Shown here in pieces: positions 8,218 through 11,200 of a DNA stretch of 64,000 bases. This DNA is from Candidatus Latescibacterota bacterium. Lineage in GTDB: Bacteria; Latescibacterota; UBA2968. The translations under genes and the position numbers were made by a program. Numbering within the stretch: the first letter of the stretch is position 1; every line of letters begins with the position of its first letter. Below the pieces are notes generated by a model. That model searched no databases. It saw nothing but the letters and a program-made list of their open reading frames with translations, and was not told the origin of the DNA. The stretch covers positions 704,001-768,000 of the forward strand of contig OZ244960.1 of the NCBI GenBank assembly GCA_965222605.1, in the 5' to 3' direction.

Positions 8218-11200
8218 TTAATCGTCTATCGGCAACCCCACAAATAACCGGCTATACTCATCCGTCAACGGATCGCGCTCGCCCTTTTGCGCTGCGCGGG
8301 CAAATACCACACCCGGCGTTTCCGACCTGCGTGCCCGCGCCAAAACGCCATACCCACCGGGCGCACTCTGCGTCTCCAGATCGCCCTGAATCGCTATCAT
8401 CTCTGCCAGCGCATTGGCCAAACCCCAGCGCGCACCAATCGCCCGCGCAAAAAGCTCCTCTGGCGTCAGCCCCTCCCTAAAACCGTGCTTCAGAGGCGTA
8501 AACTCACCCTGATCATTTCGCGTCACGCCCTGAGGAGCCACATACAGCCTGACTTGCTGCCAATTGGCACGCGCACCACATTCCACCAGAAGCGCGGGAA
8601 TCCCGAGTTCATCATCGTCATATCCGCGAAATCGAGCCAACACAGCCGACACCTCATCGGGATAATCGCGCCAGACATCTGGATCATCGCCCTCTGGCGG
8701 ATCGGGACAATCAAGCGACAAACCGATAAAAGCACTCATCGATGCCCCTGTCTTGCGCGCGACATCAAAACCCCGATCCCACAATCGCGTAGCCAGATCC
8801 AATGCAGCCTTCGCACCATCGCGCGCCATCGCATCCGCCATCCAGCCCATCACCTGATACTTATCGACAAACAACCCCTTTCGCTCAACCTCATCGCCGA
8901 CAATCGACGCAATCTCCTGCAACCCCTCATCCGTCATACTCATATACGCCAGGCCAAACAGCGCGTCGTGCATCGGGTGTACCTTCTCCCGTGCAATCAG
9001 CCCCGGATCCCGATTCAGATGCGCCACTGCCGACAGATGCGCCTCAGCCGACCGCTGGCCTACTTCAGTCACCGGCACAAAAATCGCCACCTGATCGCCA
9101 TCAAAATCCAAATTCATCATCTTGCAAATCGCCACACACACGCGAATTGCATCACCTTCCACGCGCACCGGACGACACGCCACAAAAGCCATTGGCGAAA
9201 ACGCGGGATTGCGAAGCACAACAGTCCATAACCCAGCCATAGCCGCATCCAGAGCTTCCTCCGCTTTTCTCGACCGCCTATCCACTTCTTCAGCCCCCAC
9301 CTCTCGCGCAGCAAACGGCCCAAACAATGTCCATGCCATTTCCTCGGGCACACCGACCTGATCGTATCGCAATTCGGGCGCAGGCGCAGCCACCGAACGC
9401 CCGCTGAACAACGCATGCGCCTGAAATTGCAAACGCGACAACTCGCAAAATGCGCGAACCCGCTCAGATAGCGTTTCAACCGCGCGATCCACCAATATAT
9501 CTGGCGCGCCATTGGCAATCATCTCACTCAAGCGGTCATTGGCCTCCCGCAATGCGCTGGGCACATCTCTCCCGCTCACATGTGTCAACGAATGCCCCGG
9601 CAGCCACGGATGCGGAACCGAGCGCGCAAGCGCGACATCCCCATCGCGTTTCAACGAAAACTCTACGCCGCGTTCATCCAGCGCAACTGCCACTCCACCT
9701 TTTGACAAATGCCCAATTAGATCATCAAACTGAGGGGACGGCGCAGTGGGGACAACAGATCCTGCAACGACGCGGTCAGATAGGGTATCAGCATCGTCTC
9801 GATCCACCGCGCACGTATTGAACAAATCGCCAATCACCCCAAAAGCACCCACTTCTCGCAACGCCAAAAACTCTGTCTCACCCAACCCTTGATCGCGTTG
9901 ATCCGGCTTCACACCCATGTGAATTTTATCTGCGGCCAGATGCAACGTGCGCCCCCAATACACCCACCCCACAGTGGTGCGACGCGGCAGCGTTTCCCCA
10001 TTTAGCGTCAGCGTCTCCATGCCATCTTCTGCCAGCCCATTAGCACTCAAACGAGTGCGTATCTCATCGTCTTTCGGCGCACTGAGCACGGGAACAATAA
10101 CCGGCTCTCCCTCGGCTTTTGCAATGCGCCCGGCCACAGCTTCACGCACCTGCCCAATATTCAACCGCGACGGCAAACCACACACACTCACAATCAGTTC
10201 CACAGGCGTGCCATCCGACAATTTGGGCATCTCTTCATCTTTCACAATGCGCGACACCACACCCTTAAAACCGTGTCGATTGCTCAGTTTATCGCCCGGC
10301 GCAACGCGATTGGGCAACATCATCCGGTTCGCAGCGGACTCACTAATCACAAGCGCGTCTTCGTGCGCATCCCCATTCCACGCCATAAACGCGGTCAGCA
10401 AATTGTACCCCGTCCAAAAATGCGGATCGCGCGGTTCACACCCCGTTTGCACCAACGCGGGTTCCGACTCCAGCGCTTTGCCGTCATATTGCGCGTGATA
10501 CATATGCCACACGCCCTGCTCATCGCGCTGCATATCGGGTCCCGGAGCACCAATCCACTGTCGCATCATATTCACACCCATCAAAACGCGATTGGTATCA
10601 TTGTGTTCCAAAAACGGAACCACCGAAGCACCTATGCCCAGCCGCTTTTTAGGGGCATCGTCTTCAATCACCAGTTTGCCATCGCGAATAGTCGCCCCCT
10701 GAGCCACCTCTAAAATCCGCGCGAGATTCGGTCCCTCAGGCGTGCAATAAGGACACACGCGCCCATCGTGTGACGGATGATAGTAATTTTCTATCCCCTC
10801 ATCGGCCTCACCAATAATTGGGATCAACGTCACCCGCCGCAAATGAACGTGCATATCCTGCCAATTGGTCGCCTGCAAATACTGAGAGGTCGGTTCTTCC
10901 GTAAAAAACGCATAAATCCAATCTCCCAACGGCATCCATGTTTCAACTGCTTCTCCCAGCAGTTCTGGCATATTTTCCAACCGCTCGGCAATATAATCGC
11001 GCACTTGCTCGCCCACACACCGAATTTCAGCGCACGCCAAATCCACCTCAGTCGGCGCGGGAACTACCGTTCGAAAAAAGCCATCCACTTTAAACCGCCC
11101 CCATTCATCGGGCTGAGGGATATTTTTGTACACAACCTCTTGTCCGCCCTGAACCGCGAGATGCAATTCACAGGTGTACTCATCCACCGACATCACCCGA

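Follow-up and report, generated by a model that had tools for sequence, protein, structure and literature searches.

A compact single-chain β::β′ RNA polymerase gene linked to an ECF-type sigma gene and its promoter in Candidatus Latescibacterota

YonO, encoded by the Bacillus prophage SPβ, is a single-chain two-barrel RNA polymerase of ~100 kDa that lacks a trigger loop, is active, efficient and processive, and has only a few catalytic residues in common with the multisubunit enzymes, as described in PMC5467207. Orf6 of the yeast cytoplasmic killer plasmid pGKL2, by the description in PMC2919709, is an Rpb2::Rpb1 fusion of 982 amino acids that is devoid of the trigger loop, rudder and lid and keeps the barrels, bridge helix, protrusion, fork and switch 3. 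Here we describe a chromosomal locus of Candidatus Latescibacterota bacterium that encodes a reduced single-chain β::β′ RNA polymerase and, upstream on the same strand, an extracytoplasmic function (ECF)-type sigma factor. The locus lies within a stretch of 64,000 nucleotides (the window; assembly GCA_965222605.1, contig OZ244960.1, positions 704,001 to 768,000), and coordinates below are counted from the first letter of the window. We put at slightly better than even the reading that sigma and minimal polymerase constitute a self-promoted two-gene module, in which sigma domain 2 would dock on the clamp helices that the polymerase has kept.

The polymerase frame comprises 1029 residues from a TTG at 11307 or 1028 from an ATG at 11304. 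The ATG is the likelier start, because AGGAGG lies six bases before it and 1028 is the length of homologues that are 91-94% identical; residue numbers follow the 1029-residue frame from TTG 11307 throughout, and the true numbering is then probably one lower. Pfam detects Rpb2_6 (E = 1e-39; 137.2 bits against a cut-off of 23.4), Rpb1_2 (3.1e-14; 54 bits against 25.3) and Rpb2_3 (4.2e-5), and a search of PDB chains matches residues ~105-545 to bacterial β (best E = 3.8e-44) and residues 632-792 to β′ (1.1e-25). The protein is therefore a reduced RpoB, which occupies the first ~560 residues, fused head-to-tail to a reduced RpoC that makes up the remainder. The AlphaFold2 model of the chain has a mean pLDDT (predicted local distance difference test) of 93.7 and a pTM (predicted template modelling score) of 0.92; VIA-align superposes its residues 1-549 on β/Rpb2 chains with Z ~30 and ~520 residues at 2.5-2.9 Å, and the top Foldseek matches are β and β′ chains (E = 1.6e-23). 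No NCBIfam model reaches its cut-off on the polymerase. The models for full-length RpoB and RpoC, TIGR02013 and TIGR02386, give 171.4 and 104.7 bits against cut-offs of 801.15 and 963.5, and the RpoBC-fusion models NF011417 and NF007172 give 171.6 and 161.3 bits against 4632 and 5372, a shortfall of more than 25-fold. An ordinary rpoB (1269-residue frame) and rpoC (1368-residue frame) are present ~420 kb away on the same 6.34-Mb contig, so the fused polymerase is an additional enzyme beside the normal pair and not the main one of the cell.

The partner gene encodes an ECF (group 4) sigma factor with domains 2 and 4 only: Sigma70_r2 matches residues 32-100 (3.6e-18), Sigma70_r4_2 matches residues 143-195 (3.5e-15), and TIGR02937 gives 123.2 bits where the cut-off is 42.9. 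Translation probably starts at TTG 13848, since the GTG of the longest open reading frame (ORF), which reaches 13875, falls inside the -10 element of the promoter, and AGGAGG precedes the TTG. Domain 4 is conserved, and the linker motif VP.WMID...PD is unusually so, with P112 and W114 invariant. The protein belongs to a separate clade, scoring 316.5 bits where the next of 13 sigma-like frames in the genome scores 110.6.

The association of the two genes holds across the family. We compared the window with 19 loci that have wide flanks and whose polymerases share 38-82% identity with that of the window. An ECF-type sigma gene of ~200 codons lies upstream on the same strand in all 20 and is directly adjacent in 18; in the other two, the window and L126, a gene for an ABC exporter separates the pair. 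No other neighbour of the polymerase is conserved in the 20 loci, no α or ω gene is linked to it, and no anti-sigma gene is conserved at the locus. Candidate cargo genes were considered and discarded, as the clusters found in at least five loci are antisense shadow frames and those found in four are inconsistently placed. A scan with the family-specific pattern NMMRQW, for which 120 loci were listed, returned 28 family members, 18 of them with enough flank and 5 of these repeats of loci in the first comparison. The sigma gene stands immediately upstream in each of the 13 new loci, whose titles name Chloroflexota/Chloroflexia, Phycisphaerae, Brocadiia, Myxococcales, Armatimonadota, Poribacteria and Latescibacterota.

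Co-occurrence is nearly as tight at the level of genomes. Across 168 genomes of the window's phylum, the polymerase is found in 65, the sigma in 63 (profile E<=1e-40) and both in 62. Only one of the 103 genomes that lack the polymerase has the sigma, in a copy at a contig end. The three genomes with the polymerase alone comprise one in which the gene lies at a contig end (G149), one with a deletion remnant (G146) and one with an intact gene (G143). The remnant (L282; G146:C1:720700-724800) is a decayed cassette in which the promoter motif is followed within ~140 nt by the polymerase from residue ~94 onward, the sigma gene and the first ~93 codons being deleted. In intact pairs the sigma stop and the polymerase start have a 4-base overlap in at least L120, L121 and L125 and a 1-base overlap in L117, and the pairwise divergence of sigma and polymerase is correlated (r 0.92, 190 pairs). 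One genome (G071) carries two complete cassettes on a single 8.4-Mb contig (L117 and L118); their sigmas are 52% and their polymerases 40% identical, and they share the same promoter consensus. A possible natural fusion of sigma and polymerase was also considered: P0269, a protein of 640 residues on a contig of 2145 bases, joins sigma domain 2 to the N-terminal half of the polymerase through ~60 Arg/Gly/Pro-rich residues that stand in place of sigma domain 4. We took it for a probable frameshift or deletion read-through and left it out of the counts.

The order of the unit is promoter, sigma gene, (ABC exporter gene), polymerase gene and terminator. The consensus upstream of the sigma gene, TGAAC(C/T), 13 bases, (C/T)GG(T/C)GTC, was found as a regular expression in 18 of the 20 loci (in L118 it stands further upstream, and L004 carries a variant) and in 14 of 17 sigma-bearing loci from the NMMRQW scan; in three loci the start codon lies 20 nt past the motif. 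A -35 GAAC with a -10 GTC is the typical promoter consensus of ECF sigma factors. Sigma and polymerase together are a free-standing two-gene unit without cargo, because in four loci (L001, L002, L003 and L123) the listing of frames places opposite-strand genes on both flanks of the pair. By sequence comparison, the ABC exporter gene is a lineage-specific insertion that is polymorphic among close relatives, since an RNA-library contig of a relative (run X17) joins position 11320 to 13268 with 10 other letters between them and thus represents the cassette without the exporter gene. Contigs from four metatranscriptome libraries of three studies, 90-95% identical to the window and therefore from relatives, map to the polymerase, ABC and sigma genes. 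They are compatible with expression, with the limits that the contigs do not show start or strand and that carry-over of DNA is possible.

To place the reductions, a profile was built from 48 full-length homologues, which have 34-82% identity to the polymerase of the window, and compared with E. coli RpoB and RpoC from NC_000913.3; the names and residue ranges of the E. coli elements are those that we take to be standard. The β half matches E. coli β 486-579, 649-707, 790-821, 1054-1148 and 1177-1342, and weakly 118-147. The β′ half matches β′ 267-516 (E = 7e-43), 588-640 and 712-793, and weakly 76-126 and 1322-1354. Both double-psi barrels are kept, together with the NADFDGD loop, the lysines of the β GDK and HG.KG motifs, the bridge helix, part of switch 2 and the clamp helices; the profile also retains a fork/Rif-region segment, the β D-region, switch 3, funnel-type segments and part of the β C-terminal clamp.

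Several claims of an original prediction, made from the letters of the window, concern this map. It had identified the stretch at 9448-9556 as the β′ coiled coil, and the profile returns the identical register. Residues 585-620 (9448-9555, so that the proposed end was one base off) align with β′ 272-306, with 12 of 35 residues identical to E. coli, and the AlphaFold2 model folds the region as a helical hairpin (H584-598 and H603-620). It had also counted ~20 residues between the ED and GDK motifs, against ~250 in E. coli, and concluded that the flap is deleted. With ED at residues 316-317 and GDK at 338-340, the gap is 21 residues against 249 in E. coli (β D814 to G1063), the spacer 317-338 is exactly 22 residues long in 48 of 48 homologues, and E. 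coli β 822-1053 has no counterpart in the polymerase when tested with the profile. Nor does flap-like sequence occur elsewhere in the chain, no unaligned stretch of which is roomy enough for a displaced flap.

The absence of the β′ zinc-binding domain, also proposed from the sequence, is borne out in that no cysteine is conserved in residues ~520-585 of the 48 homologues; five of them have two or more cysteines in the junction between the halves, at positions that do not align. What is left of the zinc region is a motif matching the 'HIWF' segment of β′, and weakly so (-2.1 bits). The model has short strands in the junction (E539-565), and a cysteine-free remnant of the zinc domain may persist there. 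Further losses, which the original prediction did not list, are the lobe (β ~150-485), the rudder (β′ 311-336), the rim helices and the jaw. The trigger loop is gone as well, along with all else that lies between the bridge helix and the C-terminal block: only 49 residues follow the bridge helix, without a match to β′ ~800-1320, and they leave too little room for a trigger loop.

Conservation within the family follows the catalytic apparatus. In the 48 sequences, G338, D339, R344 and G346 of the β motif are invariant, K340 and K348, like the catalytic D734, D736 and D738, are at least 90% conserved, and the histidine of the motif falls in one or the other of these two classes. The ratio of nonsynonymous to synonymous substitution rates (dN/dS) over the whole gene is 0.11-0.17 in nine of ten comparisons with orthologues, the tenth being saturated, and it is 0.12-0.33 in the catalytic block. 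The fused chain is under purifying selection, and it is likely, as we infer from these conserved features, to be an active DNA-dependent RNA polymerase.

In a word-indexed search, most of the 120 proteins among the matches listed are 1000-1067 residues long, with identity down to 43%; eight of the rows are named, and every source name is 'hypothetical protein'. An exhaustive search gave 333 cluster representatives at E<=1e-30, a count that includes ordinary β subunits, and a whole-alignment search for related loci recovered mostly ordinary rpoB, with family members at 4 of 80 loci. A protein atlas holds two clusters of the compact family, with 73 and 135 members. In the window's phylum the distribution of the 65 carrier genomes is patchy, although all 20 other genomes of the window's genus are among them. 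Labels of the metagenome-assembled genomes that carry homologues are Poribacteria, Latescibacterota, Chloroflexota, Planctomycetota, Armatimonadota and Myxococcota. In a tree, 20 family tips form one clade against 51 canonical β sequences with support 1.0 and a long stem; the tree is an unrooted FastTree of 213 columns of the β C-terminal block and is silent on origin.

An origin from mobile elements was considered and set aside, as relatives covering at least 80% of the protein were found in none of 38 phage hits (tblastn over 50,697 phage records) and in none of 67 plasmid records. Matches in a viral structure library are weaker than those to cellular β and β′ (best E = 7e-17). Salmonella phage Arash gp206 (OQ632216.1, L283), a protein of 1525 residues whose gene adjoins the portal gene, matches polymerase residues 315-793 at 26% identity across both barrels and is a different, larger single-chain fused polymerase; similar matches occur in Vibrio phages D181, D148 and D69. 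The protein atlas contains several further clusters of other fused forms, of 1221-1787 residues. Given these clusters and the 1525-residue phage protein, fused two-barrel enzymes are a wider theme than the compact sigma-linked family.

Table 1. Features of the sigma-polymerase locus, in window coordinates.
Feature	Position	Strand	Details
Terminator-like hairpin and T run closing the upstream gene	13901-13928	-	12 pairs, 7 of them G-C; insulates the operon
ECF-type promoter	13871-13896	-	-35 TGAACC (13891-13896), -10 CGGTGTC (13871-13877)
ECF-type sigma factor gene, 201 residues	13243-13848	-	Pfam, TIGR02937; ribosome-binding site AGGAGG at 13856-13861
ABC exporter gene (fused transmembrane and nucleotide-binding domains, TMD-NBD)	11347-13140	-	Pfam ABC_membrane, ABC_tran; between sigma and polymerase
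Single-chain β::β′ RNA polymerase gene	8218-11307	-	ORF, Pfam, PDB, profile and AlphaFold2 evidence
β-like half (residues 1-~560)	9628-11307	-	VIA-align and profile matches to E. coli β
Flap-deletion site, short ED-GDK spacer	10297-10356	-	ED at 10357-10362, GDK at 10288-10296; length invariant in 48/48
Cysteine-free junction opening the β′ half, with PHPWL motif (9601-9615)	9559-9627	-	Weak match to β′ 76-126
Clamp-helix hairpin (residues 584-620; ~ E. coli β′ 271-306)	9448-9558	-	Profile and AlphaFold2 model
Shortened rudder/switch-2 segment, ending in FSGRSV	9391-9447	-	~25 residues of E. coli β′ 311-336 missing
Catalytic loop NLDFDGDQ (residues 732-739)	9091-9114	-	Three Asp at least 90% conserved
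Bridge helix (H949-980, 32 residues)	8368-8463	-	AlphaFold2 model; profile match to β′ 712-793
Terminator-like hairpin (16 pairs) and T run after the polymerase stop	8160-8196	-	Operon end

How the two products might work together can be outlined as follows. The fused polymerase and its partner sigma would form a holoenzyme of two polypeptides that is directed to promoters. Sigma domain 2 would dock on the retained clamp helices, and sigma domain 4, with no flap tip to use, would be free or held elsewhere, the linker motif being a candidate for holding it. The first copies of both proteins would come from the shared promoter, transcribed by host core enzyme that carries this sigma. The partnership itself is suggested by the tight co-occurrence in both directions, by translational coupling and by the position of the polymerase gene, where the binding partner of an ECF sigma is usually encoded. 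Docking on the clamp helices is suggested by the survival of the hairpin in all 48 homologues when nearly every other peripheral element was lost, and by conservation of the residues it has in common with E. coli, with N276, R278, L279 and R281 matched in 34, 35, 36 and 27 of the 48.

A number of observations weigh against this scheme, and they fall into three groups. First, gene adjacency also fits an ECF sigma with its target gene, so that binding is not proven by it, and G143 has an intact polymerase with no sigma within 4 kb upstream or anywhere in the genome at E<=1e-40. Second, the flap tip and the zinc domain, which usually hold sigma domain 4 and the linker, are both gone. The hairpin has a mean pairwise identity of 38% against 49% for the rest of the polymerase, and its dN/dS ranges over 0.08-0.36 against 0.11-0.17 for the whole gene; that the hairpin is less conserved and changes more quickly than the remainder of the chain speaks against a special constraint on it. 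At the positions of E. coli R275, E295 and A302, which we take to be important for sigma70 binding, the family has alanine, alanine and variable residues. Of the earlier claim that sigma binding is under selection, what stands is the link to the sigma gene (20 of 20 and 13 of 13 loci, 62 of 65 genomes, overlapping codons), whereas the comparison speaks weakly for selection on the clamp-helix surface for sigma binding.

Third, the promoter has no visible regulon. A position weight matrix (PWM) was built from 12 sites, leaving out five near-duplicate loci, two without a match to the regular expression and one with a shorter spacer. The operon's own promoter, a member of the training set, is the top site in the genome with 31.5 bits, and the next sites have 21.1 and 18.8. 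In the same genome, 7 sites reach at least 16 bits against 11 for the reversed matrix, with no excess at any threshold, and a strict promoter pattern matches 4 times against 0-8 times for five permuted patterns. Five other carrier genomes have 5-13 pattern matches against 0-10 in the control, and among the loci examined only sigma genes recur downstream. Two identical extra promoter sites in one genome (G010) lie antisense inside paralogous coding sequence and were taken as chance. The operon is the only visible output of the promoter, whichever enzyme reads it.

These points feed the main rival, in which the sigma is a mere switch. With the host core it would transcribe the operon, and the fused polymerase would be sigma-free, as YonO may be, acting on substrates that are not set by a promoter and keeping its clamp helices for structural reasons. 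Linkage alone fits this explanation equally well. The ordinary bipartite ECF promoter, with its fixed spacing, has the geometry that a host flap together with clamp helices would impose, and the fused enzyme has neither flap nor zinc ligands; its clamp helices have changed more rapidly than the remaining protein; a promoter that is unique in the genome is expected if the operon is the sole target of the sigma; and the polymerase of G143 does without a linked sigma. Three features argue in the other direction. The hairpin is kept throughout the 48 homologues, with its N, R and L positions conserved, despite the loss of nearly all peripheral elements. The overlap of stop and start codons, together with the location of the gene in the place of an anti-sigma, suggests that the two products are made together. 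Finally, co-occurrence is near strict in both directions, the single sigma among the 103 genomes without a polymerase being located at a contig end. We consider the switch explanation possible but rather unlikely.

The promoter bears on both readings. The original prediction held that -35 recognition through the flap cannot be canonical; there is indeed no flap, yet sigma domain 4 is conserved and the promoter of the operon follows the usual bipartite ECF layout at a fixed spacing. The conserved domain and the fixed spacing indicate that the -35 element is read by something, be it the host core or the fused enzyme.

A second alternative, which we regard as improbable, is that the enzyme copies another substrate, such as RNA templates or single-stranded or nicked DNA, or synthesizes primers, as some other reduced two-barrel enzymes do, for instance polymerases of the QDE-1 type. 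Without a rudder, with a shortened switch 2 and with the lid, zinc domain and flap absent or reduced, the enzyme would have an open RNA exit and a simplified surface for handling DNA, and the PWM scan of the genome detects no regulon. On the other hand, the protein has kept the fork region, the β D-region, switch 3, funnel-type segments and some of switch 2, and it is closer by far to cellular β and β′ than to any other structure retrieved. Switch 2 and the funnel are associated with DNA-transcribing enzymes by Ruprich-Robert and Thuriaux (PMC2919709).

Least of all do we favour a fused protein that serves as a regulator or decoy, binding sigma as an anti-sigma-like sink or soaking up inhibitors aimed at the host enzyme, its activity as a polymerase being secondary or gone: the gene does sit directly downstream of an ECF sigma, the usual place of an anti-sigma, with no conserved anti-sigma nearby, and positive autoregulation without a brake would presumably run away unless a sigma-binding product of the operon supplied negative feedback, but the Asp triad, the β lysines, the bridge helix and both barrels are conserved in 48 sequences down to 34% identity, the catalytic block has the dN/dS given above (0.12-0.33), and a fold of 1028 residues is a costly way to bind sigma, all of which makes this very improbable.

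Returning to the module of sigma and minimal polymerase, a stronger version can be formulated, to which we give a little less than an even chance. It would be the first natural sigma-dependent single-chain polymerase, a promoter-specific machine of two polypeptides (~1230 residues) without α, ω, flap, zinc domain, rudder or trigger loop, and it would provide a private, self-amplifying channel beside the host enzyme in at least six phyla. Since the domains gripped by many inhibitors are absent, it might also stand in for a blocked main enzyme, as a backup or an insulated channel. If this is true, the pair would be the smallest known sigma-dependent transcription machine and a natural experiment on which parts of the enzyme promoter recognition, melting and elongation can do without. 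For structural biology, it would be a compact object in which to view sigma-core contacts with the flap and zinc domain removed, and for synthetic biology an orthogonal triple of polymerase, sigma and promoter of bacterial origin. A second polymerase would be added to the gene set of many uncultured lineages.

Downstream of the polymerase terminator is a separate unit with a sigma-70-like promoter match at 8134-8106: a BlaI/penicillinase-type repressor gene (7684-8070, minus strand) is followed directly, with overlapping stop and start, by a gene (4976-7684, minus strand) for a BlaR1-type M56 peptidase fused to five TonB C-terminal repeats (902 residues). Just upstream of the sigma promoter are two overlapping genes on the minus strand, 13952-14899 and 14889-15926, for proteins of 315 and 345 residues. 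The 345-residue protein has a DksA/TraR C4 zinc finger (Pfam, 1.6e-9), and the 315-residue protein has no Pfam or NCBIfam match. The two genes are not conserved beside the cassette, and only L116 has a relative of the 315-residue protein, ~8 kb away. Further along, 16988-18755 (minus strand) encodes an MjaI-type restriction endonuclease (2.1e-62) and an N6/N4 DNA methylase, together a type II restriction-modification pair, with UvrB beyond. Over positions 1-28000 the GC skew is strongly negative (to -0.29) and nearly all long frames are on the minus strand; the skew flips near 30 kb.

Known systems close to the pair include the canonical core (α2-β-β′-ω) with an ECF sigma factor. The barrels, the NADFDGD loop, the GDK and HG.KG motifs, the fork, the bridge helix and the clamp helices are alignable, the sigma has the two domains of its class, and the promoter is of the ECF type. 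The canonical core, however, comprises ~2750 residues in several chains and has the lobe, flap, zinc ligands, rudder, rim helices, trigger loop and jaw, all of which are absent from the fused enzyme, a single chain of 1028 residues in a clade of its own. Full-length RpoBC fusions, represented by NF011417 and NF007172 (~2840-2890 positions), also join β to β′ in one frame and in the same order, but they consist of complete subunits and are the only polymerase of their cell, whereas the genome studied here keeps a separate rpoB and rpoC. Operons of an ECF sigma and its anti-sigma resemble the present one in that an autoregulated sigma gene stands before the gene of a product expected to bind sigma, and the stop of the one often overlaps the start of the other. 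There, the downstream gene encodes an anti-sigma; here it encodes a polymerase, and no conserved anti-sigma is present at the locus.

Among fused enzymes, Orf6 of pGKL2 is the nearest architectural analogue by its published description, with the same order of fusion, a near-equal size and losses of the same kind. By that description it is a plasmid-borne protein of eukaryotic derivation that carries its own inserts and lacks a partner sigma, in contrast to the present family, which is chromosomal, bacterial, purely reductive and tied to a sigma. YonO is likewise a single chain with two barrels and offers a precedent for working without a trigger loop (PMC5467207). YonO is prophage-borne, and its description differs from the present protein, which aligns with β and β′ over most of its length; none of the 38 tblastn phage hits, from a phage set in which the inclusion of SPβ is unconfirmed, covers at least 80% of the query. 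We found no description of a sigma-linked compact β::β′ fusion in full-text searches of the literature, where an earlier mention may exist, and a paper on the reclassification of ECF sigma factors (PMC7826278) does not mention Rpb1, Rpb2, RpoB or RpoC in its text or in one supplement. Fused two-barrel enzymes as such are already known; the new element here is a compact fused polymerase that is linked to a sigma factor and to a promoter.

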